64,000 nt of DNA from Xanthobacteraceae bacterium (GCA_035472475.1 DATIPA010000119.1:330-64329), one strand, 5' to 3'. Counted from the stretch's first letter, positions 5,094 to 23,716 are shown. Made by a program: numbers and translations. Notes: generated by a model from the letters alone, not told the origin.

Positions 5094-5876
5094 CTATTGG
5101 TCGCTGAGTTTCTGGGCAAGCTTGTGATACCGCGCGCGGCTGTTGGCAAGGTGGCGCCGCATCACAGCGCGCGCCTTCGACACCGCGTGCACGCGGATCG
5201 CCAGCATGATGTCGCGGTGCTCGTTCTGAATCCGGTCGAGATAAGCGCGCCGCTCGCCCGCCGTGCCGATCGTCACCCGGATGGTCTGGCGCGGGATGAT
5301 GAAGCGGCCCAGATAGTCGAGAAAACGCGCAAACTGCGGATTGCCGGCGGCCTCTGCGATCCGGCAATGAAACGCGAAATCCTCATCGACTGCGGCGTCG
5401 CCGCGGCCAATGGCAGCACGCATCGCTTCATAGGCACCTTCGATACGGCGCAGATCGGCCCCTGTCGCCCGTTCGGCCGCAAGACCCGCGGCCTCGACCT
5501 CGATGCCGGTGCGCAGCTCCATGACCTCGATCACATGCTGCAGGGACGCGAGCTCGTCGCCATCGATCCTAAATGGCCGGCGCGGCGTCTCCGCCACGAA
5601 TGCACCGACCCCTTGTCGTGTGATCACGAGGCCTTCGGCGCGCAGCGCCGCGACCGCCTCGCGCACCACGGTGCGGCTCACCCCGGTCGCCGCGATCAGT
5701 TCCTGCTCGGTCGGCAGCTGCGCGCCCGGCGCCAGCTCGCCACTCGTGATTTGCGCGGTCAGGCGCTCGATGAGAACGTGCGTCAAACTACGCGGCGCGG
5801 CCAGTGGGCCGAGGCCGCCCGCGGTAGCGGCGGAGGGCTTGGCTGGCCTTGACAGCGTTGGTCGTAAGGTCATCAT
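5094..5876 (-). CDS. GntR family transcriptional regulator (FadR/FCD subfamily)
   Basis: 260-aa ORF with an N-terminal wHTH (LPTEQELIAATGVSRTVVREAVAALRAEGLV) and a C-terminal FCD-like helical domain. Confidence 0.85.
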   Translation of the reverse strand: MMTLRPTLSRPAKPSAATAGGLGPLAAPRSLTHVLIERLTAQITSGELAPGAQLPTEQELIAATGVSRTVVREAVAALRAEGLVITRQGVGAFVAETPRRPFRIDGDELASLQHVIEVMELRTGIEVEAAGLAAERATGADLRRIEGAYEAMRAAIGRGDAAVDEDFAFHCRIAEAAGNPQFARFLDYLGRFIIPRQTIRVTIGTAGERRAYLDRIQNEHRDIMLAIRVHAVSKARAVMRRHLANSRARYHKLAQKLSDQ

Positions 5877-5969
5877 ATGATATGATCACTAGCATGGCGC
5901 CGGACCTGCGACAACTGGCGGGCCGCGGCCGATACGAGGAACGCAACGGCAACCGCAGGGAGGAATTCG

Positions 5970-7499: not shown

Positions 7500-8789
7500 A
7501 TGGATATCGCGGTTCTCCTGATCACGATGTTCTTCTGCTTCGTGATCGGCGTTCCGATCGCCTATTCGCTCGCGCTCGCCGCCATTGCCGGCGCGTTCTG
7601 GATTGGCATTCCGCTCGAAGCCGTGATGCTGAAGATCTCCGACGGCGTCAGCAAGGTCGCCATGCTGACGATTCCGTTCTTCGTGCTCGCCGGCGCCATC
7701 ATGGCGGAGGGCGGCATGGCACGCCGCCTGGTCGCATTCGCCGACGTGCTGGTCGGGGTCACGCGCGTGCGCGGCGGGCTCTCGGTGGTCAACGTGCTTG
7801 CCACTACGTTTCTCAGCGGCATCTCGGGCTCGGCCGTCGCCGATACATCGGCGATCGGATCGGTGATGATTCCGCAAATGGAGAAGAGCGGATTTCCGCG
7901 CGTGTTCGCTACCAATGTGACGATCACCGCCTCGGTCCAGGCCCTCCTGGTGCCGCCGAGCCACAACGCCGTAATCTATTCGCTCGCAACCGGCGGCACC
8001 ATCTCGATCATCAGCCTGTTCATGGCGGGCGTCGTGCCGGGCCTGCTGCTAGGGCTCTCGCTGGTTGTGCTCGTCGTCGTCATCGCGTACCGCGACCGGC
8101 ATCCGCGCGGACAAACCGTGCCGCTCGGCGAAGCCGTCAAGATCACGATCGACGCGGCCTGGGGGCTGATCACACTCGTCATCATTCTGGGCGGGATTCT
8201 GGGCGGCGTCTTCACCGCGGTCGAGGCCGGCGCGGTTGCCTGCGTGTGGGCGTTCTTCGTCACCATGTTCATCTATCGCGACTACCGCTGGCGCGACCTG
8301 CCCGGGCTCGTTCACCGCACCTTGCGCACGGTGGCGATGGTCATGACCTTGATCGCGTGTGCCTCCAGCGTCGGCTACGTGATGGCGCTCACCCAGATGC
8401 CGGCGAAGATCACCGCGTTCTTTCTGACGATCTCCAGCGATAAGAACGTGATCCTGCTCCTGATCAACATTCTTTTGCTGGTGCTCGGATGCCTGGTCGA
8501 CATGGCGCCGTCGATCCTGATCTGCACCCCGATCCTGCTGCCCGTAATGGTGAATTTTGGCGTCGACCCGGTTCACTTCGGCATGATCATGCTGCTCAAC
8601 CTCGGGATCGGGCTCTGCCATCCGCCGGTAGGCGCGATCCTGTTCGTCGGCTGCGCGGTCGGCAAGGTCACGATCGAAGAGGTCATGCGCCGGATCTGGC
8701 CGTTCTACGGAGTCATGTTCATGGTGCTGATGCTGGTCACCTACGTGCCCAGCATCTCGCTGTGGCTGCCGCGGCTGTTGGGGCTCTAG
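7500..8789 (+). CDS. TRAP transporter large permease (DctM family)
   Basis: 429-aa polytopic membrane ORF typical of DctM. Confidence 0.9.
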   Translation: MDIAVLLITMFFCFVIGVPIAYSLALAAIAGAFWIGIPLEAVMLKISDGVSKVAMLTIPFFVLAGAIMAEGGMARRLVAFADVLVGVTRVRGGLSVVNVLATTFLSGISGSAVADTSAIGSVMIPQMEKSGFPRVFATNVTITASVQALLVPPSHNAVIYSLATGGTISIISLFMAGVVPGLLLGLSLVVLVVVIAYRDRHPRGQTVPLGEAVKITIDAAWGLITLVIILGGILGGVFTAVEAGAVACVWAFFVTMFIYRDYRWRDLPGLVHRTLRTVAMVMTLIACASSVGYVMALTQMPAKITAFFLTISSDKNVILLLINILLLVLGCLVDMAPSILICTPILLPVMVNFGVDPVHFGMIMLLNLGIGLCHPPVGAILFVGCAVGKVTIEEVMRRIWPFYGVMFMVLMLVTYVPSISLWLPRLLGL

Positions 8790-9788
8790 TTACGGCTGCC
8801 AGTACACGAATGCCATCGCATTGCCGGTACCGGCCTCCGAGCGATAGCACGGCACGTAATCGACCGGATGGAACTTGAAGCCGAGCCGCGCCATCGCGCC
8901 CGCGACCGGCACCCAGTTCTTCACTTCCGACGTGCCCGCTTGGAAAACGCTCTCGCCGAGATCGGCAACCTTCTCGATCGAGCCTTCGCGCATGGCGTCG
9001 AAGATTGCGCGATCGACTTCCTCGTCGATCACAAAGTGGGTGAGCCCGCCCGACGCGATCAGCGCGACCCGCGCGTCGCTCTTCCACGACTCGATCGCGT
9101 TCACCAGCGACTCGCCGAACTGGTAGCAGCGCCGCACGCTCGGCTGGTTGGGCGGATAGAACGTGTTGAGGATGACAGGCACGCTCGGCACCGCCTTGTC
9201 GAGCATGATCTGCCGGTAGATGAAGCCGAACGCGTGCGGCGTCTCGTCGTGCGGCAGTTCGGTAAGCGTTGAGACATCGAACTCGTCCGCCACCAGCGAT
9301 TTGACGATGTGCATGCCAAGCTCGGGTGCACCCGGATAGGTGGCACCACCGGGCGGAATGTGTCCCGGGATCGCGATCGCGATGCCGGGCGGCAGCGACG
9401 CGATGCGCTCATCGGAGAACATCGTGTTGACGATGGTCTTGCCGTAAAACACGCTGATCGCCGGCGTGTAGGCGTCGCGAAAAATCTCCTTCTGATCATT
9501 GCCGACAATGACGGCGACGTCGGGCTTGACCTCCGCGAACACAGCGGCGAGCTCACCAAGCGCCCTGCGGCAGGCGGCGTGACGCTCGCGCCAGACCGGC
9601 AACTCGATCTGCTTGCCGAGGTTTTCAGCCCTGCGGACCTCGACCAGCTGATCAAAGGTCCAAGTCTTGCTCTTGTAGAAGTGCTCCTTGTTCTTCCTGT
9701 CGGCGAGCACACGCTGGCCCCATTCCTCGGGCGGGGTCGAAAGCATCGGCCCGTGTGAAGAACCCATTCCGAGTACGATCTTTGCCAC
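8790..9788 (-). CDS. Class III extradiol ring-cleavage dioxygenase (LigB family)
   Basis: 332-aa ORF. N-terminus MAKIVLGMGSSHGPML and overall pattern match LigB-type (protocatechuate 4,5- / gallate-dioxygenase-like) enzymes. Confidence 0.8.
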   Translation of the reverse strand: MAKIVLGMGSSHGPMLSTPPEEWGQRVLADRKNKEHFYKSKTWTFDQLVEVRRAENLGKQIELPVWRERHAACRRALGELAAVFAEVKPDVAVIVGNDQKEIFRDAYTPAISVFYGKTIVNTMFSDERIASLPPGIAIAIPGHIPPGGATYPGAPELGMHIVKSLVADEFDVSTLTELPHDETPHAFGFIYRQIMLDKAVPSVPVILNTFYPPNQPSVRRCYQFGESLVNAIESWKSDARVALIASGGLTHFVIDEEVDRAIFDAMREGSIEKVADLGESVFQAGTSEVKNWVPVAGAMARLGFKFHPVDYVPCYRSEAGTGNAMAFVYWQP

Positions 9789-9835: not shown

Positions 9836-10843
9836 TCACACCTTCAACTTGAACACTTTGCGCGCGTTGTCGGCGAAGATCTTGTTGCGGTCCTGCGGCG
9901 AGAGCCACGCGAAGCCTTCGATATGCGGCCGGATATGATCCATCGTGTGACCGGTGTCCGGATCGATCGTCGATCCGACCCCTGGACATTCCGACCCGAA
10001 AAGGCAGCGGTCGGGGCCGACGGTCTTGATCAGCAATTCCAGTGCGGGCGCCGTGTAAAGCACGGTGTCGAAATATAAAAGCTTGAGCCGGTCGCGAAAG
10101 CGCGTCGCCCCGCGCCCGCGCAGCGAGGGGGCGTCGAAGCGCCCGAGCTGATAAGGGATTGCGCCGCCGCCGTGCGACACGATGATCTTCAGGTTCGGAA
10201 AATCCTTGAACACATCCGAGGACAGAAGCCCGAGGATCGCGATCGTGCCCTCGTTGATCAGGTGGACCGAATAGCTGGCGCGCTCGGAACGCGAGCTCGC
10301 GGTGTGGATGTGGGCCGGAACATCGAGCTCGCGGAGCTTTTCGTAGAGCGGATACCAGTAGCGGTCGCCGAGCGGCGGAGCTTCCTGGCCGGAGTTCTCA
10401 TACGGGTCCGGATTGAGCAGACAGCCGACGAAGCCGAGCTCCTTGACGCAGCGTTCGAGCTCCGGCAGCGCCTCCTCGATCGGAGCGCCGGCCGCTTGCG
10501 GCAGGCTCGCGACGCCGAAGAACCGGTTGGGATAAAGCTGGGTTTGGCGGTGGATGATGTTGTGGCACTCCTCCGCGAACCAGCGCACCAGCTTCGCCGG
10601 CTTCTCGCTGTGCATGAGTTGGAACGGACGCGGGGAGACGAGCTGCACATCGGTGCCATGCGCGTGTAAAGCGTCGAGGTGACCCTTGGGACCGATCTCC
10701 GCGTGGTTGAGCGCAGCGCGCAGCTCGTCATCCGAAACCTTGACACCACCGCGGCCGTGCGAGCCGCGCGAGGCCAGCAAGCCGGCCTTGTAGGCCCAAA
10801 GCTGCGCTGGCGCGCTGACGTGCCCGTGGCAATCGATAATCAC
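9836..10843 (-). CDS. Amidohydrolase family protein, LigJ (4-oxalomesaconate hydratase)-like
   Basis: 335-aa ORF starting MIIDCHGHVSAP, which resembles the LigJ N-terminus as recalled. Adjacent to the LigB-type dioxygenase. Confidence 0.7.
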   Translation of the reverse strand: MIIDCHGHVSAPAQLWAYKAGLLASRGSHGRGGVKVSDDELRAALNHAEIGPKGHLDALHAHGTDVQLVSPRPFQLMHSEKPAKLVRWFAEECHNIIHRQTQLYPNRFFGVASLPQAAGAPIEEALPELERCVKELGFVGCLLNPDPYENSGQEAPPLGDRYWYPLYEKLRELDVPAHIHTASSRSERASYSVHLINEGTIAILGLLSSDVFKDFPNLKIIVSHGGGAIPYQLGRFDAPSLRGRGATRFRDRLKLLYFDTVLYTAPALELLIKTVGPDRCLFGSECPGVGSTIDPDTGHTMDHIRPHIEGFAWLSPQDRNKIFADNARKVFKLKV

Positions 10844-10893
10844 GCGACGTCCTCCCTTTTTGACCGACCGGTTCGCGGCCTTTTGTAGGCAAG

Positions 10894-11652
10894 TTATTTG
10901 GTCACGGTTTCGAACAGCTGGTGCGCGCGGATCGTCTCCAGCCGCCGCCGGATCAGCCGACAGGCGCGCTCGGCGTCGCCGGCTTCGACGGCGTCGAGCA
11001 CCGCCTTGTCGGCTGAGACCACCCGCTTGGTCACGGCGTTGCTGGTGCGTCGCCCGTAGATCGGTTCGAGCACAACCCGCAGAGCCTTGAACTGTGCCGA
11101 CAGCGCCCGGTTATGGGCGGCATCCACAAGCCCGGCGTGGAAATGCATGGCTGTCTGGGTGAAGCGGGCCGCCGTCGATGCGGTCAACGTCTTCTGCGAC
11201 ATCGTCTGCAATTCGCTCAAGATCGTACGCAGTTTCGCAAGGTCATCCTTGCTCGCCCGCCTGGCCGCAAGCTCGGTCGCCATTACCTCGATCGCAATCT
11301 GTGCGTCGAACATTTCCTCGATGCTGATGCCAACCAGCTTGAGCTGGACCGCGAGCGCGTCTGCAAAGCGATTGGGGTCGCCGGCGGCGATGCGGGCGCC
11401 GCCGTTGGCGCCCATCTTGACCTCGACGATGCCGAGCGCCTGCAGGGTCTTGAACGCATCGCGCACCGGCACGCGGCTGACGCCGAACTTCTTCGCGAGA
11501 TCGGTCTCCGAGCCGAGCACGTCGCCCGGCTTGAGCTCGCCACGGAATAGCGCCGCACGCACCTGATCGACGATGCGGCTCGAAACCGATTGTGGCCGCA
11601 CCTCCTGCCAGCGCGACCAGCGTTGCGTTGTCGACTGCGGTTTGGACGTCAC
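10894..11652 (-). CDS. GntR family transcriptional regulator (FadR subfamily)
   Basis: 252-aa ORF with wHTH (ETDLAKKFGVSRVPVRDAFKTLQALGIV). GTG start at 11652 is uncertain. Divergent from the hpaB-like gene. Confidence 0.85.
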   Translation of the reverse strand: MTSKPQSTTQRWSRWQEVRPQSVSSRIVDQVRAALFRGELKPGDVLGSETDLAKKFGVSRVPVRDAFKTLQALGIVEVKMGANGGARIAAGDPNRFADALAVQLKLVGISIEEMFDAQIAIEVMATELAARRASKDDLAKLRTILSELQTMSQKTLTASTAARFTQTAMHFHAGLVDAAHNRALSAQFKALRVVLEPIYGRRTSNAVTKRVVSADKAVLDAVEAGDAERACRLIRRRLETIRAHQLFETVTK

Positions 11653-11684
11653 CGGCGCTTTTCCAAGAAGTCAGCTTGACAGGT

Positions 11685-11699
11685 GTATAACTGTAATAC
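11685..11699. promoter_or_regulatory. Candidate GntR-family operator
   Basis: Imperfect palindrome GTATAACTGTAATAC (GTAT-N7-ATAC) immediately downstream of a TTGACA hexamer (11676-11681), in the gntR/hpaB-like divergent intergenic region. Confidence 0.35.
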
Positions 11700-11755
11700 A
11701 GATTTTCGATAAGGCAAGCGGCGAAGATCGTCGGCTGCCGCGAGGAGGAGCGTCC

Positions 11756-13231
11756 ATGATGTCACCAAGCGTTGGGCCGGCCGCCCGAGGCCGTGCCGAC
11801 AGGGTCGGCGCGCCCGGCATCATGGACGGGGCACGTTACATCGAGAGCCTGCGGGACGGGCGCGAAATCTGGCTGCACGGCGAGAGGGTCGCCGATGTCA
11901 CGCAGCATCCGGCGTTTTGCAATGTGGTTGCGACTTTCGCCGGGCTTTACGATCTGCAGCACCAGGCCGCCACCCGCGAGATCATGACCTACGTTGACCC
12001 CGACGGCGTGCGCGGCTCGGTGTCCTATTTGCCGCCAGCGTCGCCGGACGAACTGCTGCGCCGCCGCCGTAACACCGAAGTCTGGACCGAGCGCAGCTTT
12101 GGCATGCTCGGCCGGTTGCCCGACTTCTGCGCCGCCATGCTGGTCGGCTTCCATGACACCCGGGCCGAGCTCAACGCTCTGCACGCGGGCTTCGGCGACA
12201 ACGCGACGCGCTACCTCACGTACGCGCGCCAGAATGACCTTGCGCTTTCGCACGGCCTACACGATCCGCACATGGACAAGACGCTGCGCCCGCGCCAGGA
12301 CCCCGACCGCTGCCTGCGCATCGTCGCCGAACGCGACGACGGCGTGGTCGTGCGCGGCGCCCGCTTTGTGACGCTCGGGCCGCTGAGCAACGAGGTGGTG
12401 GTGGCGCCCACCTACGTGCTGGCCGACGACGAGGAGGAGTTTGCGATCTGGTTTGCCTGCCCGGTCAACCTGCCCGGCATCCGCCAGATCTGCCGCGACC
12501 CGTTCACCTTGCGGCCGCAGACCGCGGATCATCCGCTGTCGACCCGCTACGACGAGCAGGACGTGCTGATGATCTTCGACGACGTACTGATCCCGTGGGA
12601 ACGGGTTTTTCTGATGCGACAGCCGAAAGCGGCCAACGCGCTGTTCCGATCGCGTGTGATGTCGTGGGCGGGCTACGCCAGCATATTGCAGACCATGGCC
12701 CGGCTTGAGCTGATCATCGGCACCGCGCATCTGATCGCCGAGACCGGCGGCATCGCGAAGCGTCCGCATGTCGCGCTCGAAATGGGGGAGCTCGTCTCCT
12801 ACGCGGGTATGTTCAAGGGCATGCTGCGCGCCGCCGAAGTTGATTGCGTGCGCACGCCGGGCGGGCATTACACGCTCGGCGACACCGGGCACATCCGGCC
12901 GCTGATCGCCATGACCTCCGAGCGCATCATCAACATCTTCGAACACGTGGCGACCAGCGCGCCGGTGTTCGCGGCGACCGCGGAGGATTTCGACGTGCCG
13001 CAGCTGCGCCCGCTGCTCGATGTCTATGGCCGCGGCAAGGACGTTAGCGCCGATTACCGACATCGGCTCTGCCGGCTGGCCTGGGAGCTCACCGCCGATT
13101 CATTCGGCGGGCGGCAGCAGCTCTACGAGCGCCTGCACTCCGGTTCGCCCGAGGTCATCGTCAGCGGCGCCTATCAGCGCTACGACAAGGCCAAGGGCAT
13201 CGCCATGGTCAACACGCTGATAGGCGAGTGA
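11756..13231 (+). CDS. 4-hydroxyphenylacetate 3-monooxygenase oxygenase-component family protein (HpaB family)
   Basis: In-frame ATG 11756 is preceded by GAGGAGG. YIESLRDGREIWLHGERVADVTQHPAF is typical of the HpaB / 4-hydroxybutyryl-CoA dehydratase fold family. Confidence 0.85.
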   Translation: MMSPSVGPAARGRADRVGAPGIMDGARYIESLRDGREIWLHGERVADVTQHPAFCNVVATFAGLYDLQHQAATREIMTYVDPDGVRGSVSYLPPASPDELLRRRRNTEVWTERSFGMLGRLPDFCAAMLVGFHDTRAELNALHAGFGDNATRYLTYARQNDLALSHGLHDPHMDKTLRPRQDPDRCLRIVAERDDGVVVRGARFVTLGPLSNEVVVAPTYVLADDEEEFAIWFACPVNLPGIRQICRDPFTLRPQTADHPLSTRYDEQDVLMIFDDVLIPWERVFLMRQPKAANALFRSRVMSWAGYASILQTMARLELIIGTAHLIAETGGIAKRPHVALEMGELVSYAGMFKGMLRAAEVDCVRTPGGHYTLGDTGHIRPLIAMTSERIINIFEHVATSAPVFAATAEDFDVPQLRPLLDVYGRGKDVSADYRHRLCRLAWELTADSFGGRQQLYERLHSGSPEVIVSGAYQRYDKAKGIAMVNTLIGE

Positions 13232-13366
13232 CCGGCCCTGCGCGAAAGCGCCGCTATCCGTAAGCAGAATGCTGCGCTAAAGCTTGTTGCGTCGTCTTTC
13301 CGGGCAGCGCGCGCTGTTTGCGTCCCGGCCAGTGCACTTGACCAACGCGGAAGCGCAGCAACTGCC

Positions 13367-14488
13367 ATGCGAACCACTACTATCAATCCGCCGTCGTCTC
13401 GGCTCTGCATGAGCGTGGCGACGCTTGTGCTCGGGCTTTTGTTCATGCCGCAGGTTTTCCTGTCGAGGGCAGTGGCGCAGCCGGCGTCACTCACCCAATC
13501 GCAGTCCGACGCGCTCAACGCGTACAACAATGCGCTGAGCCAATTTAAGTCGATCCTGAGCCAGCGGCGCGCACAGATCAACTCGCACGAACCGCTGCCG
13601 AACCTGCCTGGACAGGCGCTTTATCTCGCCCGCAACAACATGATGAGCACGTACAAGGATCTCACGGACGTGCTGCCGTCCAAGATCGGGCGGCCCAATA
13701 AGTTCGGGATTCCCCCGGCCTACTTCGATGCCGACAACGAGCCGCTAATCGATGAGTACACGAATATCTTCAAGATCATGCAGGCGCCGCCCGCCAACGC
13801 GCAGAACTCGGAAACGCCGTTCAAGGACGTGGTCGACCTTGGAACCGCCATCGCCCGCGCCAAGGGCCTCGATGCGGCAAATGCCGATGCGGCAGGCCGT
13901 ATCAGCCTGGGCCTGTTTTTTGCCGAAACCAACGGCAACCAAAACATCGGGAACGCGCGCTCGAACAAGTACAAGGGAAGCCTGCAAACCGGTGTGTCAG
14001 AAAGTCAAAATGGTCAAGCCAAGTGGGCGGCGATCAAAAAATCGATTGCAGCGTTCGATCCCGCGCTGGTCGCCCGCGACGACAGGGAGGAGGCGCGGGT
14101 GGGCAGTTCGGATCATCGTTACAACCACTGGACCGCCGTGCGAGACGGCCTGATGAACGCGCACGCCAATCTTTTTCAGCAAATACCGGCGATCGCCAAA
14201 GCATTGCCCAATCCGATCGATCAGATGAAGCTGTTCGAGCTGATCCAGATCATTCCGAGCCCGACCAAGGCCGCCCTCGCGTCAGGCAACCTGGCCAATT
14301 ACAGAGTTTCAGACTCGACCATCATGGGATATCTGCGCAACAACAGCATGTTCGCCTATGGACAAGCTGATAGGGCCAAAACATCGGCAACCTTCCGCGA
14401 AATCATGAGCGCGATGTGGCTCTTCAACGAAAAATTCGAACGCGCTACGGCCAAATTCAACGAGATCAAGGCGCAGAAAAAGGGCTGA
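13367..14488 (+). CDS. Hypothetical exported protein
   Basis: 373-aa ORF with an N-terminal signal-like segment (VATLVLGLLFMPQVFLSRAVAQP). Visibly lower GC than its neighbours. No family recognised. Confidence 0.7.
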   Translation: MRTTTINPPSSRLCMSVATLVLGLLFMPQVFLSRAVAQPASLTQSQSDALNAYNNALSQFKSILSQRRAQINSHEPLPNLPGQALYLARNNMMSTYKDLTDVLPSKIGRPNKFGIPPAYFDADNEPLIDEYTNIFKIMQAPPANAQNSETPFKDVVDLGTAIARAKGLDAANADAAGRISLGLFFAETNGNQNIGNARSNKYKGSLQTGVSESQNGQAKWAAIKKSIAAFDPALVARDDREEARVGSSDHRYNHWTAVRDGLMNAHANLFQQIPAIAKALPNPIDQMKLFELIQIIPSPTKAALASGNLANYRVSDSTIMGYLRNNSMFAYGQADRAKTSATFREIMSAMWLFNEKFERATAKFNEIKAQKKG

Positions 14489-14512
14489 GTGCCGAGGTCA
14501 TTGCCAATAGGG

Positions 14513-14947
14513 CTATTCGGCGGGAATGGCTTTTTCACCTGCTCTCGCATAGTTCTGCAGCTTGTCTTTCAAAATCTCGACAGCGCTCTTGGCGCCGCCT
14601 TCGTTGCTCTTCGACGCTTCCGCGGTTCCGCCCTGTACTGTCGCGGGCGGCGGCAGGTCACGCACACGAACGAGATAGTTCGCAAGCACCGCGGCATATT
14701 GAGCCTTGGTGGTGTAATGCTCGTGCAGAAACCCCGTGAGGCTGCGGGCGTCGCGGCCGCGCCCTAAGCCTTGAGGCGAAGGGTGACAGGCCGAGCAGTC
14801 GGAGGCAAACAGCTGCTCGGGCGTCTTGCGGGCGCTGTAGTCGACCTGACCCAGCGCAAGGCCGGGCGACGCGACGACGACCCCAATCGACAACCATCGC
14901 CGCAAGAAGGCCGGGAACCAAGGGCGTGAACCTGAAATCATCTTCAC
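14513..14947 (-). CDS. Putative exported c-type cytochrome-like protein
   Basis: 144-aa ORF with a signal-like N-terminus and a single CxxCH haem-binding motif (CSACH). Confidence 0.6.
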   Translation of the reverse strand: MKMISGSRPWFPAFLRRWLSIGVVVASPGLALGQVDYSARKTPEQLFASDCSACHPSPQGLGRGRDARSLTGFLHEHYTTKAQYAAVLANYLVRVRDLPPPATVQGGTAEASKSNEGGAKSAVEILKDKLQNYARAGEKAIPAE

Positions 14948-15100
14948 CCACCATATTGTGTTTGGCAGGCCAGGGCTCGAGCACCTTCTTTAATCCACCC
15001 GGGGGTCGAATTTTGCCCCAATTGTTCTACAAATCCAATTGCTCTGTAAGCCCATTTAGTTGGCCTTGCCGTCAAGCTGACGAGGCCCAAAAGCATCTGA

Positions 15101-16099
15101 TCAGGGGATTAACACCATCGAGCCTGTGTTGCTCCTGGATTCGATCTCGCGGTGCGCCGCGGCGGCTTCGCTCAGTGGGAACGTACGGCTGATCTCGATC
15201 GTCAGCGCCCCCTTCTGCACGAGGTCGAACAGTTCGGCGGCGGCGGTCCGCATGGTCGCAACATCGCCGATGTAGCTCGAGAGCCCCGGCCGGCAGACCG
15301 AGAGCGACTTCGGCGCAAGGTGCAGGAGCTCGATCGGCGGCACGTGGCCGGACGCGTTGCCGTAGTTGACCGCCTTGCCGAACGGCCGGATGCAGGCGAA
15401 CGATTTGAGGAACGTATCCTTGCCGACGCCGTCGAACACGGCCGCGACACCCCCAGGCGCGATCTTGCCAACCACCTCGACGAAATCGATCTCGCGATAA
15501 AGGATCGTGTGCTCGCAGCCATGCTGCTCGGCGACCTTGGCCTTGTCGCGCGAGCCGGCCGTACCGATGACGCTCGCCCCGAGATGCTTCGCCCATTGGA
15601 CGAGGAGGAGACCAACGCCGCTTGCGGCCGCGTGGATCAGGATCGTGTCCCCAGGCTGAGGTCGGTGGATGCGATTGATGATCAGCGATGCGGTAAAGCC
15701 CTTCACCATCATGGCGGCGGCCTGCTGTTCGGAAAAACGCGGCGGCAGCTTGATCAGGCGCTCGGCAAAGACGTTGCGTTCCTCCGCATAAGCGCCGGTG
15801 TCCTCATAGAACTCGCCGCGCATGCCGGCATAGACGACGCGGTCGCCGGGCTTGACCTCGGTGACGCCGGGCCCGACCGCTTCCACCACGCCGGCCGCCT
15901 CATTGCCAAGCACGAGCGGAAATCGCGGCGGCCGCGCCAGGTAGAAGCCGCCGCGCCGGACGTTTACATCCGAATAATTGATCCCGACCGCGGTGTGGCG
16001 AATGCGCGCCTGGCCCGGTCCCGGCGGCGGAACCTCGATGTCTTCCCAGCGCATCACATCGGGCGTGCCGTTGGCGTGAATGCGGATTGCTTTGGGCAT
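15101..16099 (-). CDS. NADPH:quinone oxidoreductase / zinc-type alcohol dehydrogenase family (Qor-like)
   Basis: 332-aa ORF with an MDR-superfamily pattern (IRHTAVGINYSDVNVRRG...AAASGVGLLLVQWAK). Confidence 0.85.
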   Translation of the reverse strand: MPKAIRIHANGTPDVMRWEDIEVPPPGPGQARIRHTAVGINYSDVNVRRGGFYLARPPRFPLVLGNEAAGVVEAVGPGVTEVKPGDRVVYAGMRGEFYEDTGAYAEERNVFAERLIKLPPRFSEQQAAAMMVKGFTASLIINRIHRPQPGDTILIHAAASGVGLLLVQWAKHLGASVIGTAGSRDKAKVAEQHGCEHTILYREIDFVEVVGKIAPGGVAAVFDGVGKDTFLKSFACIRPFGKAVNYGNASGHVPPIELLHLAPKSLSVCRPGLSSYIGDVATMRTAAAELFDLVQKGALTIEISRTFPLSEAAAAHREIESRSNTGSMVLIP

Positions 16100-16231: not shown

Positions 16232-17560
16232 CTACTCCGCCGCGATCCGCAGCGCGCCGGTTGGGTTCTTGGAGGCGCGCATCTCCTCCGAATAGGCGCG
16301 CAGCCAGTCGAGCGCCGACGAGCTTGCGAAATCGCCGCCGCGCGCACCCTGATAGGTCTCGGGATTGTCGACGCCGGGGGGCACGATCCCTTCCATGTGG
16401 GCCTGCACGGCACGCAAGATGCGCCGGCGGGTGCGCGTGATCATCAGGTCGCTGATCGCGAGATTCTCGTGCTCGTGATCGACGATCCCGCCCATGCTTT
16501 CGGTGATCGCCTGATCCTGCAGATGGACGCCGTCAATTCCGGTATAGCTGATGTTGCGCGCCTGCTGGTCGCGATCCATCAGGTAGTCGTTCTCCTTGTT
16601 GGCCTTCAGGCGCCAGCGGCCGAACCAGCTGGTGTCGCTTTCCGCATACATGTGCGGCAAGACCGGCGCCATGCCGGGAATCGGGCTGCCGTCCTTCATC
16701 TTGCGCAAGCCCGGCGCGTTCTTCTTCCACGCCGCGTGCACGAACATGGTGTGGGTATCGTCCATCGGCACCCAGGCGCGCGCGACCACGTGATCGCGGA
16801 AATGCCCGTCGGGCGGAATCGTCCAGAACGGAAACATGAAGTGCGCGAAGCGCCAGTAGATCTCGCCTGGCGCGCCGGGCCGGTAGGCCGAATACATAGT
16901 GCCCCAGTCGGTGTCGGCGACGTGATACTCGGGCGCGCGGTTGGCGAGCGCATAGCGCCCAAGGTGGCCGGGCTCGGTGTCCTCGACCTCTACGCCGCCC
17001 ATGTGCAGGAAGCCGAGATGGGAGGTATCGATGTCGCCTTCGAGCGCCTGCAGATAACTGCACTCGCGCTGGACCATGAAAAGGTTGCGCTCGCTGTCGT
17101 CGGCGATCATGACCGATTCGAACATCGGCGGCGGCGGCGGTTCCTTGCGGGCGCCCATGTAGGTCCAGATCAGGCCGTTGCGCTCCGCGGTCGGATAGGC
17201 CTTGGCGGTGATCTTGTTGGGAAACGCCTGGTGCTTGGGAACGTTCGGCATGTCGAGACAATTGCCGTCGACGTCGAACATCCAGCCGTGGTACGCGCAG
17301 CGCAACCCATCTTTCTCGTTGCGGCCGAAGAACAAGGAGGCGCAGCGGTGTGGGCAGCGATGGTCGAGCACACCGACCCGGCCGGCGCGATCGCGAAATG
17401 CGATCAGCTGCTCGCCCAACAACATGAGCCGCATCGGCGGCCCATTGGCCGTCAGCTCGGCGGACAACGCGGCGGGAACCCAGTACTCCCGCATGAAGTT
17501 GCCCATTGGAGTTCCGGGCCCAACCCGACTGAGCAGCTCGCCCTCGGCTCGTGTGGTCAT
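16232..17560 (-). CDS. Rieske [2Fe-2S] non-heme-iron ring-hydroxylating oxygenase, alpha subunit (paralog of 66..1361)
   Basis: Real gene is the 442-aa C-terminal part of ORF 16232..18466, starting MTTRAEGELL at ATG 17560. Rieske motif CPHRCASL...CAYHGW. Confidence 0.85.
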   Translation of the reverse strand: MTTRAEGELLSRVGPGTPMGNFMREYWVPAALSAELTANGPPMRLMLLGEQLIAFRDRAGRVGVLDHRCPHRCASLFFGRNEKDGLRCAYHGWMFDVDGNCLDMPNVPKHQAFPNKITAKAYPTAERNGLIWTYMGARKEPPPPPMFESVMIADDSERNLFMVQRECSYLQALEGDIDTSHLGFLHMGGVEVEDTEPGHLGRYALANRAPEYHVADTDWGTMYSAYRPGAPGEIYWRFAHFMFPFWTIPPDGHFRDHVVARAWVPMDDTHTMFVHAAWKKNAPGLRKMKDGSPIPGMAPVLPHMYAESDTSWFGRWRLKANKENDYLMDRDQQARNISYTGIDGVHLQDQAITESMGGIVDHEHENLAISDLMITRTRRRILRAVQAHMEGIVPPGVDNPETYQGARGGDFASSSALDWLRAYSEEMRASKNPTGALRIAAE

Positions 17561-17671
17561 GCGCGTCTCCCGTTGCGTTTCTCGTTTTGATTGTAACCCG
17601 GTTGGAGCCTGTGCGTAATCCGGGGTAAGGAATATCTGATCCCGGATTTCATCCGGGCTACAGGTAAAAGC

Positions 17672-18607
17672 ATGGTTCAGAACTACGACATCGTCATCGC
17701 CGGCGGGGGTCTCGCCGGACTGACCGCGGCCGTCACGGCGGCACGGCTCGGCCGCAAGACGCTGGTACTCACCGGCGACGTCATTGGCGGACAACTCCTG
17801 AGCATCGAAAAGATCGAGGGCTTTCCCGGATTTCCGGACGGCGTCCCCGGTTACGATCTCGCCCCAATGACGCAGGAGGAAGCCGCAACCGCCGGCGCCG
17901 AATTCACCGCGGCCGAACTCAAAAACCTCACCCCCGACGCAGGCGGCTGGCGGCTGGCAACCGGCGAAGGCGAGGTTGCCGCCCGCGCCGTGGTGCTGGC
18001 GACCGGCTCGTCGCTGCGCGAGCTCGACGTGCCCGGCGAAGCGCGCCTGCGCGGCCAGGGCGTGAGCCATTGCGCGAGCTGCGATGCGCCATTGCTGCGC
18101 GACAAGATCGCCGTCGTCGTAGGAGGCGGCGATTCCGCCATGCAGGAGGCGCTGACCTTGGCGCAACACGTCAAGGAGGTCGCGATACTGACCCACGGCA
18201 CCGGCCTCGCCGGCCAGACGAGCTTTCGCGAGCGCGTGACGCAAAATCCGAAGATCAAGGTGCGGCCGCAGATCGAGGTGACGGAGATCCTCGGCGAGGC
18301 CAAGGTCACGGGCGTGCGCATGCGTGATATGTCGGGCGGCGCCGTGACAGATCTCGCTGCCGACGCGGTGTTTGTCTACACTGGCCTTCAACCAAATACC
18401 GCATTCCTCGATGGCCGGATCAAACTTGGCCCTGGGGGCGGAATTCCGACCGACGAGTGGATGCACACGGAGCTGATTGGCGTTTGTGCCGCCGGAACGG
18501 TTCGCGCCGGATCAGCTTGTCGGGCGGCCAGTTCGGCAGGCGACGGCGCCGCGGCCGCAATCGCGGTTGATCGGTACTTGACCGACGGCAGTTGGCGGCG
18601 AAATTAG
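17672..18607 (+). CDS. Thioredoxin-disulfide reductase-like FAD-dependent pyridine nucleotide-disulfide oxidoreductase
   Basis: 311-aa ORF. N-terminal GGGLAGL FAD motif, redox-active CASC in GVSHCASCDAPLL (compare E. coli TrxB GVSACATCDG) and a second Rossmann VVGGGDSAMQEA. Confidence 0.8.
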   Translation: MVQNYDIVIAGGGLAGLTAAVTAARLGRKTLVLTGDVIGGQLLSIEKIEGFPGFPDGVPGYDLAPMTQEEAATAGAEFTAAELKNLTPDAGGWRLATGEGEVAARAVVLATGSSLRELDVPGEARLRGQGVSHCASCDAPLLRDKIAVVVGGGDSAMQEALTLAQHVKEVAILTHGTGLAGQTSFRERVTQNPKIKVRPQIEVTEILGEAKVTGVRMRDMSGGAVTDLAADAVFVYTGLQPNTAFLDGRIKLGPGGGIPTDEWMHTELIGVCAAGTVRAGSACRAASSAGDGAAAAIAVDRYLTDGSWRRN

Positions 18608-18632
18608 CGCGACGGAATGAGAGGAGACCGCA

Positions 18633-20267
18633 ATGGCGGAACGACTGACGGTCCTCAATCCAACCGGATACCCGCCCAAGGTCGTGGGCAAGCGGCTCGC
18701 GCCGCGACCGCAGAGCCTCGACGGCAAGACGCTCTATCTGGTCGATTGCCTGTTCGACAACTCCGAAGCGTTCATGGATCAGATGCGGCGCTGGTTCGCC
18801 GAGCACCTACCCACCGTCAACACCCGCATGATCAAGCCGCGCGAGAGCTGGGTCGACGACCCGGACATGCGCGCCAAGGTCGCGGCCGACGGCGACGCCG
18901 CCATATTGGGTGTCGGACTTTGAAGCACCTGTAGCCCCACGGTCGTGGGGCTCGCCATGGCGCTGGAGCAGGCCGGTGTGCCGTCGGTCGCGCTCCATAC
19001 CCACGTGTTTGCGCGGCTTGCGCAATCGGTGGCGCGCGCCAACGGGATGCCGCGCACGCGCCAGGCCTATGTTCCGCAGCCGATCGTCGATCTTTCGCCC
19101 GAGCAGCTGCGCGGCTACATCGACGGCGCCGATCCGGTCTCGCGCCGCCCCTTTATGCAGGAAGTGATCGAGGCGCTGACGAGGCCGCTCGACGAAGACG
19201 ACCTCAAAGGTCTCACGTTCGAACGCTCGACGCCGCGGCTGCTCGAACCTGACACCGAAGACAACCTCCAGAAGCTGTTCATCGAGAACAACTGGACGGA
19301 CTTCCTGCCCGTCATTCTGCCGACCGAGGAACGGGTCGCCGCCATGCTCAAGGGCACGAGCCATCCGCCCGACAAGGTGGTGGGCCGGCTGCGCCCGACC
19401 TCGTTCCGCGAATTCTGGGAGCTCACGGTCGAGAAGGTCGCCGTCAACGCCGTCATGGCCGGTGCCAAGCCGGAGTATCTGCCCGTGATCCTGGCGCACG
19501 CGGCAAGCGGTGTCACCGCACGCTCATCGAGCACGACCTCGCTCGCGATGATCAGCCTGGTCAACGGTCCGATCCGCAACGAGATCGGCATGAGTTCGGG
19601 GATCGGCGCGATGGGTCCCTACAATCACGCCAACGTCACCATCGGTCGCGCCTACAATCTCCTCTCGATCAACGGCCAGGGCGGATCGGTGCCGGGTGAC
19701 ACCTACATGGGCACCCTCGGCAACGCGTTGAACTACAGCGCGACCTTTGCGGAAGCCGAGGAGCGCAGTCCGTGGCAACCCTTCCACGTGCAGAAGGGTT
19801 TCAAGCCGACCGACAGCACGGTCAGCATCTTCTTCGGCGGGCGCTACACCGCCTCGGGCTTCGGGCCGCGCGCGACCTGGAAGGAGAAGATGATCCGCTG
19901 CCTGACCTCGATCGATCACAACCAGGGGCCGCTGTTGGTGATGGACCCGATCGTCGCTCGCCTGTTCGTCGATCTCGGCTTTGACACCAAGGAAAAGCTG
20001 ATCGACTGGTGTGCCCAGAACGCCCAGATGCCAGCGCGCGACTATTGGGACGACCAATGGGTGCAGACGCTGACGCATCCGCTCGCGATTGCCGGCGTTG
20101 AGCCTTTTGCCAGCAAGCTCAAAGCCAGGCCTGACGAGATGGTGAAATTGTTCGAGCCGCACGACATCTCAATCGTGGTCGCCGGCGGCGAAACCCAGGG
20201 CGCCTGGAAGATGATTGGCGGCGCCTATCGGGGCAAGGCCACGGTCTCGGTCGATGCCTGGCGGTGA
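18633..20267 (+). CDS. Candidate selenoprotein (in-frame UGA at 18921-18923, U-S-T-C motif). GrdB/PrdB-like or UGSC-like N-terminal redox domain fused to a domain of unknown function
   Basis: ORFs 18633..18923 and 18945..20267 share a frame and are separated only by one TGA. GAGGAG SD precedes ATG 18633. There is no SD before GTG 18945. A SECIS-like hairpin follows the TGA. Confidence 0.6.
18933..18952 (+). promoter_or_regulatory. SECIS-like stem-loop (putative selenocysteine recoding signal)
   Basis: AGCCCCA-CGGUCG-UGGGGCU: a 7-bp perfect stem starting 9 nt after the UGA. The loop contains GGUC closed by C:G. The UGA-to-loop distance is 16 nt. Confidence 0.55.
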
Positions 20268-20374
20268 CGCGCCGGGCCGCTTGGCTCGGATGCGCCGCGC
20301 GGCTGTCTTTCCCAACTACTCCTAAGCTATGCTGCGCGCGCCCGCTGCACGCGGGGTCATCTGCGAGGCATGGC

Positions 20375-21376
20375 ATGCACAATCGGAATGTCAGTTTGAT
20401 ATGGGCGACAGCTGCCGCACTCTTTGTTGTGGCGGGTGGCGCGATCAGCGCCTCTGCCGACACCTACCCGAGCCGCCCGATCAAGATCATCGTGCCGTTC
20501 GCGGCCGGCACCTCCACCGACATCACGGCGCGCCGTGTCGGCGACGGCATGGCGCCGCTGCTGGGCCAGCCGTTTGTGGTCGAAGCCAAGGGCGGCGCCG
20601 GTGGAACGATTGGAACCGACCTCGTGGCAAAGTCTCCGCCGGACGGGTACACGCTCGTTCTCGGCAGCATCGGTACCCATGCCTTCAACGTCAGTCTCTA
20701 CAAGGCGCTGTCCTATGATCCGCTGCGGGACTTCGCTCCGGTGACCCGCCTCGTGTACGGCGGCTTCAACACGCTGTTGGTGAACCCGGCGCTGCCCGCC
20801 AACAATCTCACCGAATTCGTCGCGCTTGCGAAGGCACGCGATGCCGCTGGCAAACCTCTGACGTTCGGTTCCGCGGGAGTAGGCTCAGTCGGCCACCTCC
20901 TGGTGGAGCTTCTCAAGCAAGCGACCGACATCAAGGCCCTGCACGTGCCCTACAAGGGATCGTCGCTGATCGTCGCCGACGTCATGGGCGGGCACGTGGA
21001 TTTCTTCATCGCGGCGCCGTCGATCGCGATCCCGCAGGTGACCGGCAAGACCTTGAAGGCGATCGCCATCGACGCACCGGAGCGTTCGCCCTATCTGCCC
21101 GGTGTCGCGACCATGCGGGAGGCCGGCATCAACAACGTCGAGGCGCAGATCTGGCTCGGATTGTTCGCGCCCGCCGGAACGCCGCCCGATGTGATCAACC
21201 AGTTGCACGCGGCGGCGTTGCGGGTGTTGGCCACCGACAAGGTCAAAACGGAGTTTGACCGCGATGGCCTCACCATCGTGACCGACCAGAGCCCCGACGC
21301 GTTTCGCAAGGTCGTTGCCGCCGACATCACCAAGTGGGCCGCCGTCGTCAAGGCGGCAGGCATTGTGCCGGAATAG
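20375..21376 (+). CDS. Bug family tripartite tricarboxylate transporter substrate-binding protein (TctC-like)
   Basis: Start at ATG 20375 (MHNRNVSLIWATAAALFVVAGGAISASA signal peptide). YPSRPIKIIVPFAAGTSTD is typical of the Bug/TctC family. Confidence 0.85.
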   Translation: MHNRNVSLIWATAAALFVVAGGAISASADTYPSRPIKIIVPFAAGTSTDITARRVGDGMAPLLGQPFVVEAKGGAGGTIGTDLVAKSPPDGYTLVLGSIGTHAFNVSLYKALSYDPLRDFAPVTRLVYGGFNTLLVNPALPANNLTEFVALAKARDAAGKPLTFGSAGVGSVGHLLVELLKQATDIKALHVPYKGSSLIVADVMGGHVDFFIAAPSIAIPQVTGKTLKAIAIDAPERSPYLPGVATMREAGINNVEAQIWLGLFAPAGTPPDVINQLHAAALRVLATDKVKTEFDRDGLTIVTDQSPDAFRKVVAADITKWAAVVKAAGIVPE

Positions 21377-21404
21377 GCCGCGCTCATGGCCAGATGGACC
21401 AACC

Positions 21405-21791
21405 ATGATTAAACCGATCGAGTATGCGGACGCCTCGCGCGACGTGCGCGCCGTGTTCGACGACATCAAGAAGACCCGTAACGTTCCCGACGTGAACAAC
21501 TTCTGGAAATACCTCGCGCACGATCCGGTCGGCCTCAAGCGCACCTGGGAGAGCGTCAAGGAGGTGATGGCGCCCGGCGCCATCGATGCGCTCACCAAGG
21601 AGATGATCTACCTCGCGGTCAGCGTCACCAACGGCTGCGGCTATTGCATCGCGAGCCACGGTGCGGCCGCCCGCAAGGCCGGCATGACCGAAGCCATGTT
21701 CGGCGAGCTGATGGGGGTCGTCGGCATGGCGAACGAGACCAACCGGCTAGCGAACGGCTACCGGGTGCCGATCGATCCGGCGTTCGAATAG
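21405..21791 (+). CDS. Carboxymuconolactone decarboxylase family protein (AhpD-like, CxxC)
   Basis: 128 aa from ATG 21405. AhpD-type motif NGCGYCIASH. Confidence 0.85.
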   Translation: MIKPIEYADASRDVRAVFDDIKKTRNVPDVNNFWKYLAHDPVGLKRTWESVKEVMAPGAIDALTKEMIYLAVSVTNGCGYCIASHGAAARKAGMTEAMFGELMGVVGMANETNRLANGYRVPIDPAFE

Positions 21792-21883
21792 GATTCAAGC
21801 ATGCCGGGTCCAACGATCGCGCGACTTGACGGGCACACGCGGCCAAAGAACCATAGCGAGCGCCTGCGCTCCGGGATAACAGC

Positions 21884-23239
21884 ATGCCCATGATGAAGCT
21901 TGGACTGTTCTTCGAAGGCTGCGGCCATCACATCGCGGCGTGGCGCGATCCGGAGGTCGATGCGCACGCCAAGCAGTCGCTCGCCCACTACGTCGAGATT
22001 GCGCGGCTCGCTGAGCGCGGCAAGTTTGATCTTCTGTTCACCGCCGATACCAACGCGACGTTCGGCCCGGATGATGTCGAAGCCTGGACCCGCACCACAG
22101 CGGCCTCGCGGCTCGAGCCGATTACGCTGCTGGGCGCGCTTGCGGCCGTCACCAGCAGGATCGGGCTCGTCGCCACCGCCACCACGACCTACTTCGAGCC
22201 GTTCCACGTCGCGCGCTTTTTTGCGTCACTCGACCAGATCAGCGGCGGCCGCGCCGGTTGGAATCTCGTGACCTCGTCTGCCGCCGCCGAGGCTTACAAC
22301 TTTGGTCGCGAACAGCACGCCGGCCATGCCGACCGCTACGCACGGGCGCACGAGTTTGCCAAGGTGGTGCTCGGTCTGTGGGATAGCTGGGAGGACCATG
22401 CGGTCATCGCCGACAAACAGAATGGCCTCTATCTCGACCGCGACAAGCTGCACTTCCTCAACCACAAGGGTCAGCACTTCGCGGTGCGCGGTCCGCTGAC
22501 GGTGCACCCCTCACCGCAAGGCCATCCTGTGATCGTGCAGGCCGGACAGTCCGAGGACGGCCGCGAGCTCGCGGCCGAAACTGCGGAGGTCATCTTCACG
22601 GTGCAGCAGGACCTCGCCGCGGGGCGCGAGTTCTACAACGACGTCAAGCGCCGCGCCGCCGCTTACGGCCGTCCGCCCGAGGCCATCAAGGTGATGCCCG
22701 GCGTGATGACGGTGATCGGGCGGACGCGCGCGGAGGCCGAGGACAAATATGGCCGGTTGCAGGATCTGATCGCGCCCGAGATCGGCATCAAGATGTTGTC
22801 GACCTACCTTGGGGTGGATCTGACGCGACACTCGCTCGACGGCCCGGTTCCGGAACCGAAGTACACCAGCCAGGAAGTCGGCCGCGTCAAGGTCATGGTC
22901 GATCTTGCCCGGCGCGAGAACCTGACGATCCGCCAGCTCTACAAGCGCGTCGTCGGCCAGCGCGCCCATCGCGTGGTGATTGGCACGCCGGGTGACATCG
23001 CGGATGCGCTCGAGCAATGGTTCACGGCCGGCGCGGCCGACGGCTTCAACATCCTGCCGCTCACGTTCCCGCGCGGGCTCGAGGAGTTGGTTGACTTCGT
23101 CATTCCGGAACTGCAGCGGCGCGGGCTGTTCCGGACCGAGTACGAAGGCCGCACGCTACGGGAAAATCTCGGCCTGCCGCACCCCCTCAATCGCTGGTCG
23201 GCGGATAGGCAGCGAGCGGCGCTACGGCACGTCAGCTGA
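21884..23239 (+). CDS. LLM class flavin-dependent monooxygenase (NtaA/SnaA/DszA family)
   Basis: 451-aa ORF. MKLGLFFEGCGHHIAAWRDP and overall layout are typical of the nitrilotriacetate-monooxygenase component A family. Confidence 0.85.
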   Translation: MPMMKLGLFFEGCGHHIAAWRDPEVDAHAKQSLAHYVEIARLAERGKFDLLFTADTNATFGPDDVEAWTRTTAASRLEPITLLGALAAVTSRIGLVATATTTYFEPFHVARFFASLDQISGGRAGWNLVTSSAAAEAYNFGREQHAGHADRYARAHEFAKVVLGLWDSWEDHAVIADKQNGLYLDRDKLHFLNHKGQHFAVRGPLTVHPSPQGHPVIVQAGQSEDGRELAAETAEVIFTVQQDLAAGREFYNDVKRRAAAYGRPPEAIKVMPGVMTVIGRTRAEAEDKYGRLQDLIAPEIGIKMLSTYLGVDLTRHSLDGPVPEPKYTSQEVGRVKVMVDLARRENLTIRQLYKRVVGQRAHRVVIGTPGDIADALEQWFTAGAADGFNILPLTFPRGLEELVDFVIPELQRRGLFRTEYEGRTLRENLGLPHPLNRWSADRQRAALRHVS

Positions 23240-23260: not shown

Positions 23261-23716
23261 TCAAGTGCAATGTGGGTAAATGGCTGTCAGTTCGTGGCCG
23301 CGCAGCAGGATCAGGTGCGAGTTGAGGCCGCCGCGCCGCAAGATCCAACCGCGCACCTCGGCGGGATAGAGATCCATCATCAGACGGGTGGCCTCCGGTT
23401 GCGGTACTACGTGCCCGCGCTCGGCTGGAACCCACGCCGCGTGGAAGCCGAGCACCGCCCGCGACGTGACGCAAATCCGGCTTCTCGGTACGACCCCGAG
23501 GACTAGCGTGCAGGCCGAAAGACATGGGCCATCGATGACGACGCGCTCTCCAGTTGCCCGCACCTCTTCGAACAGGTCGAGGAATTCGCCGATTTGCCCG
23601 CCCGGGCTCGACTTGATGCGCACCTCCGCCGTGGCCGGACCGAGCACCGCCAGCACGACCAGCATCGCGGCCGCGATTCCACACGCCGCCGGTGTCCCTG
23701 TTTTGAAGGTTCCCAT
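23261..23716 (-). CDS. Hypothetical exported protein
   Basis: 151-aa ORF with a signal-like N-terminus (AAAMLVVLAVLGPATAEV). No family recognised. Confidence 0.55.
   Translation of the reverse strand: MGTFKTGTPAACGIAAAMLVVLAVLGPATAEVRIKSSPGGQIGEFLDLFEEVRATGERVVIDGPCLSACTLVLGVVPRSRICVTSRAVLGFHAAWVPAERGHVVPQPEATRLMMDLYPAEVRGWILRRGGLNSHLILLRGHELTAIYPHCT

Follow-up and report, generated by a model that had tools for sequence, protein, structure and literature searches.

A conserved gene pair for a thioredoxin reductase–like flavoprotein and a UGSC-fusion selenoprotein in a Xanthobacteraceae bacterium

Since 2005-2008, UGSC-containing proteins have figured among the predicted selenoproteins of unknown function (PMC2398784, PMC1976440, PMC9312934, PMC13188914). 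UGSC proteins are among the most abundant predicted selenoproteins of aquatic metagenomes, and they ranked first in frequency of use among the families in the nonmarine samples of the 2008 Global Ocean Sampling (GOS) study (PMC2398784). A fusion of UGSC to a domain called "Unknown_1" was mentioned in the same year (Zhang & Gladyshev 2008, PMC2398784); "Unknown_1" may be the C-terminal domain described below. No function, structure, or reductase partner was described in the texts examined from the searchable literature that mentions the family. In this study, a member of the UGSC family was analyzed in a 64,000-nucleotide stretch of DNA from Xanthobacteraceae bacterium (GCA_035472475.1 DATIPA010000119.1:330-64329), referred to here as the window. 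The gene is the second of five co-oriented genes at positions 17672-23239 and follows a gene for a thioredoxin reductase (TrxR)–like flavoprotein (Table 1).

An earlier reading of the window from its sequence alone (the sequence-only reading) had taken all five genes as one redox module, comparable to the clostridial operons that encode GrdB- and PrdB-type selenoproteins. The layout it described was confirmed by the coordinates of the open reading frames (ORFs), which lie on the plus strand with gaps of 25, 107, 28, and 92 nt when biologically sensible starts are chosen, and its family assignments for genes 1, 3, 4, and 5 were borne out by Pfam and NCBIfam profile scans. Its overall interpretation held in part: the UxxC selenoprotein and the tie of this protein to the TrxR-like gene were upheld, but the five-gene module and the GrdB/PrdB analogy were not. 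The conserved unit is probably a two-gene redox couple, in which the TrxR-like flavoprotein would reduce a selenocysteine (Sec) center in the UGSC domain and this center would serve a substrate of the C-terminal domain.

The tie between the two genes rests on their neighborhoods in other genomes. A scan of one genome per GTDB species yielded 80 loci with relatives of the selenoprotein, and three further contigs brought the set to 83. Unsupervised clustering of all ORFs within 5 kb of these loci identified the TrxR-like gene, present at 26 of the 83, as the only specific recurrent neighbor; it shared the strand in 25 cases and lay no more than 400 nt away in 20. The next real ORF clusters consisted of generic ABC-transporter and binding-protein genes. 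The pair was found in Alpha-, Beta-, and Gammaproteobacteria, Chloroflexota, Actinomycetota, Binatia, and others, with the two genes in either order. Since the partner may lie upstream or downstream and yet be adjacent, these results argue for selection on adjacency and not for inherited synteny. A reverse test, in which metagenomes were scanned with the TrxR-like family as the seed, gave a matching result. Partner-type reductases (identity of 44% or more, motif SHCASCD(G/A)P, and no HRRxxxR) had the fusion gene alongside in 6 of 12 loci, as against none of 68 loci with an ordinary TrxB (CATCDG, HRRxxxR). Three of the other six partner-type loci lie on contigs too short to tell, two were partly informative, and one (L091) is clearly without a fusion gene. 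The association proposed by the sequence-only reading between the selenoprotein and the gene upstream of it is therefore supported both by recurrence across phyla and by reciprocal specificity for one TrxR-like subclade.

The linkage also follows the cellular location of the fusion protein. Within the clade that shares at least 50% identity with the window's protein, which is cytoplasmic and, like the window's protein itself, carries no signal peptide, the TrxR-like gene is present in 25 of 43 loci; 19 of these have it adjacent on the same strand, and three more have only selD between the two genes. The corresponding count for the distant clade is 3 of 37. Distant fusion homologues (<46% identity; Acidobacteriota, Verrucomicrobiia, Desulfobacterota) mostly begin with signals of the twin-arginine translocation (TAT) type (M-x-x-NRRKLLSLLGxSPALLAG) or of the secretory Sec/lipoprotein type (L045, L046, L050, L051, L053-L055, L057, L059, L061, L063, L064, L066, and L080; further L041, L052, L056, L062, L068, L070, L071, L076, and L078). 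To judge from these N-termini, the distant homologues appear to be exported selenoproteins, which would put them out of reach of a cytoplasmic flavoprotein and so account for the lack of a TrxR-like neighbor. Collectively, these comparisons demonstrate a specific and reciprocal gene linkage that is correlated with cellular location, together with the fusion architecture of the selenoprotein.

Several further arrangements of the family were seen. The pair occurs in its cysteine (Cys) form on chromids of Neorhizobium galegae, a cultured organism; in strain HAMBI 540 it is located at about 21.4-23.1 kb of NZ_HG938354.1. In strain VafX2 (L172; CP090555.1, 134.7-137.3 kb), the Cys-form fusion and the downstream TrxR-like gene each align in two frames, which is due to frameshifts or assembly errors; in the PLSDB annotation, the fusion appears as two hypothetical proteins and the reductase is missing. 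On a metagenome contig (L178, 1607-7658), a Cys paralogue is found together with a GMC oxidoreductase and with a TrxR-like gene and Sec paralogue in convergent orientation. Sec and Cys fusion paralogues also coexist in one metagenome-assembled genome (MAG), SJ505 (L004 and L030), and L045 contains two tandem Sec copies (4099-5880 and 8001-9641). Megaplasmids of the haloarchaea Natrinema, Halalkalicoccus, Halorientalis, and Haloterrigena (H22, H24, H26, H27, and H28) encode distant fusion homologues with 27-34% identity; for some of these, the annotation gives a hypothetical protein and a "UGSC family (seleno)protein."

Gene 2 encodes a true selenoprotein of the UxxC type. At the codon that aligns with U97, 71 of the 83 loci have TGA, 11 have TGC or TGT, and 1 has CTA. 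Full-length Cys homologues of 545-570 amino acids (aa) with the motif C-S-T-C align across the UGA site with identical flanks, and the motif varies among relatives as U-STC, U-PGC, U-DGC, U-GGC, and C-STC, the window having GVGL-U-S-T-C. A hairpin of the bacterial selenocysteine insertion sequence (SECIS) type starts 13 nt from the U of the UGA. Among 72 Sec-form sequences, its covariation score is 0.286 compared to 0.166 in column shuffles, and none of 500 shuffles reached 0.286. Compensatory changes are seen in the helix, as in pair 18-27, which is GC in 44 sequences, CG in 12, and AU in 4. The Sec forms keep on average 4.9 of the six inner pairs and the Cys forms, in which the hairpin is lost, 2.5, and this contrast persists where the encoded peptide is the identical STCAPAV (4.4 versus 2.3 pairs). 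An Rfam scan of the window returned tRNA-Ala only and no SECIS family match. The codon comparison and the covarying hairpin demonstrate Sec decoding, and the status of candidate that the protein had been given can be dropped.

Public gene calls split gene 2 at the UGA into products of 95/96 and 435/436 aa. Such calls, and the fact that no Sec machinery is visible in the window, would fit a UGA that acts as a true stop, with the locus encoding a 96-aa peptide and a separate protein of 436-440 aa or representing a pseudogene. This explanation is extremely improbable. First, the frame and its conservation continue past the UGA in the 71 loci, which come from many phyla. Second, Cys codons take its place in 11 loci, and the SECIS hairpin covaries. 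Third, the UGA lies inside a single Pfam domain (residues 7-160). The automatic annotation that splits the gene is thus corrected by the present analysis.

Profile searches placed gene 2 in the known UGSC family as a fusion variant. The N-terminus matches PF24696 (UGSC) with 95.2 bits, compared to a gathering cut-off of 25, over residues 7-160. Against the equivalog model NF041046, which describes a stand-alone protein of ~147 aa, it scores 67.6 bits, below the cut-off of 125, and gene 2 is therefore a fusion variant and not the stand-alone equivalog. Membership in the UGSC models is defined by U/C-x-x-C and does not require the literal sequence UGSC. From its secondary structure and weak fold matches, the domain was classed as flavodoxin-like alpha/beta. 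A search of the protein database scored about 7,900 homologues of the fusion form.

The label "GrdB-like" that the sequence-only reading had attached to gene 2 was rejected. A Pfam scan of the N-terminal 186 and the C-terminal 355 residues at E<=10 returned UGSC only and no match to PF07355. Neither the pyruvoyl/carbonyl subunits GrdE and PrdA nor GrdA are encoded adjacent to the locus or among the recurrent neighbors. The analogy with clostridial GrdB/PrdB operons thus found no sequence support and no partner of the pyruvoyl-subunit kind.

The product of gene 1 has the hallmarks of a flavoprotein disulfide reductase: a redox motif (SHC134ASC137DAP) and two FAD/NAD(P)H motifs (GGGLAG and GGGDSA) that agree with the pattern GxGxxG/A. 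It belongs with Pyr_redox_2/TRX_reduct-like proteins and aligns with the Deinococcus TrxR 2q7v (E 1e-55). Its score against TIGR01292 is 254.4 bits, below the equivalog cut-off of 343.45, and it is therefore a paralogue and not the housekeeping TrxB equivalog. An alignment with Escherichia coli TrxB and 25 partner orthologues showed that the HRRxxxR motif, which contacts the 2′-phosphate of NADPH, is absent from the window's protein and replaced by THGTGLAG. The partner orthologues have variable residues in its place, often acidic at the strand end, with one exception (L017) that keeps HRR; TrxB-type matches from metagenomes retain HRRxxxR. These sequence features suggest a relaxed or NADH-directed cofactor specificity for the partner clade, and given the loss of HRRxxxR, the window's protein is probably not strictly NADPH-dependent.

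The other three genes of the block encode a TctC/Bug-type solute-binding protein, an AhpD/CMD-family protein, and a luciferase-like monooxygenase (LLM). A tblastn search with the window proteins around the 80 species-level loci found TctC-like genes near five (34-38% identity), never as the adjacent same-strand partner, the LLM near one, on the opposite strand, and the AhpD protein near none. The five-gene redox module did not survive this analysis of neighborhood conservation. The same five genes were found in two contigs (L164 and L168; 100% and 96% identity), each from the same species or a near neighbor, a Xanthobacteraceae MAG. The relative at 95% identity (L081) has none of the four partners; those at 87% (L082) and 78% (L171) have the TrxR-like gene only; and three at 84% (L083, L169, and L170) lack the TrxR gene and have a TctC gene that adjoins TauD and runs in the opposite direction. 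The five-gene order is thus limited to contigs of at least 96% identity. Because TctC/Bug genes are common in these genomes (the window alone has two), one is expected to lie near the selenoprotein gene now and then. On rhizobial plasmids, LLM homologues adjoin ABC transporters, a gene of the acyl-CoA dehydrogenase family, a second LLM, or TauD, and CMD/AhpD homologues on plasmids stand in assorted, unrelated contexts. A separate conserved TctC-CMD-LLM unit was sought on plasmids and none was found.

These distributions also bear on whether the five genes could form one functional operon in this species, in which TctC would deliver an organic acid for the monooxygenase, the selenoprotein, and AhpD to process, with the TrxR-like protein as the common reductant. 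The shared strand, the short gaps, the lack of a convincing terminator, and the identical order in L164 and L168 are consistent with such an operon. However, the two contigs come from the same or nearly the same species and are not independent evidence, and the neighbors differ already at 95%, 87%, 84%, and 78% identity. With partners as rare as those counted above, TctC/Bug genes this abundant, and LLM and CMD homologues in unrelated surroundings, a single functional operon is unlikely. The five-gene arrangement is a species-level juxtaposition, and the TctC, AhpD, and LLM genes are lineage-specific neighbors outside the conserved system.

The C-terminal domain of the fusion is nearly always joined to the UGSC domain. 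It is marked by the motifs WTDxLP(I/V)xxPTE (also WTDxLPxxxPTE), VEKVAVNAVMAG, VNGPIR, ANxTIGRA, and ENEExSPW and has no conserved Cys. Its invariant residues include D223, T231, E267, N334, R339, E374, and W381. Searches of Pfam, NCBIfam, and PHROGs and phmmer and profile searches of the PDB returned no match for it. Ten atypical representatives provided no informative new partner domain: a UGSC domain was identified in six, and the other four, which are long (~710-740 aa), matched nothing in Pfam. Two structure models were examined. The first, an AlphaFold model of a full-length Cys homologue (predicted local distance difference test score, pLDDT, 79), has a flavodoxin-like alpha/beta domain at its N-terminus; its Foldseek matches were weak, flavodoxin-like, and confined to this N-terminal part, with no significant PDB match. 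The second, an AlphaFold2 model of the 447 residues after the UGA in the window's protein, built from a 105-sequence alignment, reached a pLDDT of 90 and a predicted template modeling score (pTM) of 0.89. Its only Foldseek matches in the PDB were class I (Fe-S) fumarate hydratases as the best (E 3.6e-4, template modeling score (TM) ~0.2, root-mean-square deviation ~17 A, ~9% identity) and Toblerone-fold cyclic amide hydrolases (E 0.04-1). Homology to either was not accepted at a TM of ~0.2. Unlike class I fumarate hydratases, the C-terminal domain lacks conserved Cys residues to bind an Fe-S cluster, and the modeled likeness would amount at most to a remote similarity of topology and not to membership.

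The proposed couple would operate as follows. A pyridine nucleotide would deliver electrons to the TrxR-like protein, at its FAD and its C134/C137 disulfide. The reduced flavoprotein would then act on the cytoplasmic selenoprotein encoded next to it and reduce a U97-C100 selenenylsulfide in the UGSC domain. The UGSC domain would thereby take the role of a thioredoxin-like acceptor, a stand-in suggested by the fact that no thioredoxin gene is encoded between the two genes. Finally, the C-terminal domain, which is fused to the UGSC domain and free of conserved Cys, would hold a substrate for the reduced Sec/Cys pair to act on. Within this scheme, we infer which way the electrons flow, that the two proteins interact directly, which cofactor is preferred, and that a substrate exists, along with its nature.

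Several observations weigh against the two-gene couple or qualify it. First, 18 of the 43 loci of the cytoplasmic clade have no TrxR-like gene nearby, including relatives at 95% and 84% identity, so the partner can be encoded elsewhere or replaced. Second, one or both residues of the redox dyad are lost in many full-length relatives, which have CSTT, SSSTT, DSAATT, or similar residues instead (alignment A6; P0129, P0135, P0207, P0224, and P0240). Because these members have lost the redox residues, the C-terminal domain may act without redox chemistry, and its activity may, on this sequence evidence, not always depend on the redox pair. Third, no sel genes and no tRNA-Sec are present within the 64-kb window, and the Sec machinery of the host is therefore presumed. 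Fourth, the TctC, AhpD, and monooxygenase genes may be co-transcribed with the pair in this species, since no convincing terminator was found in the gaps; scanning these gaps for promoters and terminators and folding them gave no informative signal.

Genes of the Sec machinery are found close to the pair in other genomes. selD, selA, and/or selB lie beside or among its genes in five loci (L003, L005, L006, L008, and L014). L005 has the order fusion (8001-9605), selD (9910-10932), TrxR-like (10953-11876), selA (11893-13320), and selB (13320-15236). The order fusion-selD-TrxR-like is shared by L006 and L008, with selA and selB following in L008 as in L005 and the L006 contig ending earlier; L014 has fusion-TrxR-selB, and in L003 selB and selA lie upstream of the pair. 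Such arrangements would be expected if the pair handled selenium itself, with the TrxR-like and UxxC proteins reducing or trafficking selenium, for example to supply selenide to SelD. Selenoprotein genes, however, commonly adjoin sel genes without acting in selenium metabolism, and most loci of the present family have no sel genes nearby. The TrxR-like partner is retained by Cys forms (L028, L031, L033, L036, L043, and N. galegae), and the large conserved C-terminal domain and the clades exported by TAT or secretory Sec signals favor an enzyme directed at a substrate. A role in selenium handling is thus improbable, and the substrate-directed redox couple is preferred.

A broader interpretation of this couple is put forward tentatively, as a possibility that may well prove incorrect. 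The pair would be a widespread and previously unrecognized two-component selenoenzyme, whose reductase may prefer NADH and whose Sec-x-x-Cys would drive reductive chemistry in a catalytic domain of new fold; versions exported by TAT or secretory Sec signals would depend on another reductant. In some soil and aquatic aerobes with the pair inside a sel operon, it may be a principal reason for keeping the Sec machinery. Three elements of the analysis appear to be new: the dedicated TrxR-like subclade as a partner of the UGSC fusion, the division between a cytoplasmic partnered clade and exported unpartnered clades, and the placement of the other three genes outside the unit. The UGSC family thereby gains a testable biochemical handle, a cytoplasmic fusion form with a dedicated TrxR-like partner, and the pair is available in Cys versions from culturable bacteria, N. 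galegae among them. In addition, three unrelated genes are removed from the pathway that had been proposed.

Table 1. Features of the five-gene block, in window positions, with the basis of each assignment.
Feature	Position	Strand	Basis
TrxR-like FAD/NAD(P)H disulfide reductase, 311 aa	17672..18607	+	Pfam/NCBIfam scans, PDB TrxR alignment, conserved neighbor
UGSC-fusion selenoprotein, 544 aa on UGA read-through, without signal peptide	18633..20267	+	Translation, Cys homologues
UGSC domain, residues ~7-160, flavodoxin-like alpha/beta, GVGL-U97-S-T-C100	18651..19112	+	PF24696
UGA selenocysteine codon, U97	18921..18923	+	In-frame TGA, codon comparison
Bacterial SECIS-type hairpin, 8-bp stem, GGUC loop	18933..18952	+	Fold, covariation
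C-terminal domain, about 350-380 residues	19230..20264	+	Conservation; no family match
TctC/Bug-type periplasmic solute-binding protein with signal peptide	20375..21376	+	PF03401
AhpD/CMD-family CxxC protein (GCGYC), 128 aa	21405..21791	+	PF02627, TIGR00778
NtaA/DmoA-family FMN-dependent luciferase-like monooxygenase (LLM), 451 aa	21884..23239	+	TIGR03860

The TctC protein matches PF03401 with 199 bits, and its N-terminus, MHNRNVSLIWATAAALFVVAGGAISASA, is a signal peptide. The AhpD/CMD protein matches PF02627 and TIGR00778 with 64 and 59 bits and has its CxxC, GCGYC, in the core. The monooxygenase scores 571 bits against TIGR03860, above the subfamily cut-off of 279.7. Minus-strand genes flank the block. 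Upstream, and divergent from the TrxR-like gene, is a Rieske/LigXa-type oxygenase gene (16235-17560, minus strand) with a paralogue of 37% identity at 267-1358 (minus strand). Downstream is an unclassified ORF of 151 aa (23264-23716, minus strand), which has no Pfam match and is followed by a dpp/opp-type ABC system. An HpaB-type 4-hydroxyphenylacetate 3-hydroxylase is encoded at 11573-13228, and the region looks like an aromatic-catabolism neighborhood. A secreted-looking protein of 373 aa (13367-14485, plus strand) likewise has no Pfam match, and a protein of 144 aa (14516-14947, minus strand) has a CSACH heme-binding motif and a weak cytochrome c match. The divergent intergenic region between the Rieske/LigXa-type oxygenase gene and the TrxR-like gene contains a near-perfect palindrome, ATCCGGGGTAAGGAATATCTGATCCCGGAT, at 17618-17647, for which ~0.02 chance matches are expected. 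It could be an operator. The palindrome was not conserved outside the species and was seen in the same-species contigs L164-L167 only.

The closest described systems include the UGSC family itself. Gene 2 shares with this family the Pfam match, the UxxC after a beta-strand, the UGA with a bacterial SECIS, and the existence of Cys homologues, and its relatives are labeled "UGSC family (seleno)protein" by the Prokaryotic Genome Annotation Pipeline (PGAP). It differs in having U-S-T-C instead of U-G-S-C, 544 residues instead of ~150, and an unclassified C-terminal domain of ~380 residues. The likeness to clostridial GrdB/PrdB is one of concept, namely a UxxC selenoprotein gene beside a TrxR-type gene and possibly a substrate-specific reductase. 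Unlike the clostridial systems, the present pair has no adjacent GrdA, GrdE, PrdA-type, or thioredoxin gene and a different domain architecture, and the hosts are mostly aerobic soil and freshwater lineages.

The pair also resembles the TrxB-TrxA and AhpF-AhpC relays. Its flavoprotein has the same fold as theirs, with Rossmann motifs for FAD and NAD(P)H and a CxxC in the active site, and is encoded beside a redox-dyad protein. In addition to the score below the TIGR01292 cut-off and the loss of HRRxxxR, two differences set the pair apart. First, the active site of the partner reads HCA(S/T)CD(A/G)P, whereas that of TrxB reads CATCDG. Second, the acceptor here would be a flavodoxin-like UGSC domain with Sec in place of a thioredoxin or peroxiredoxin.

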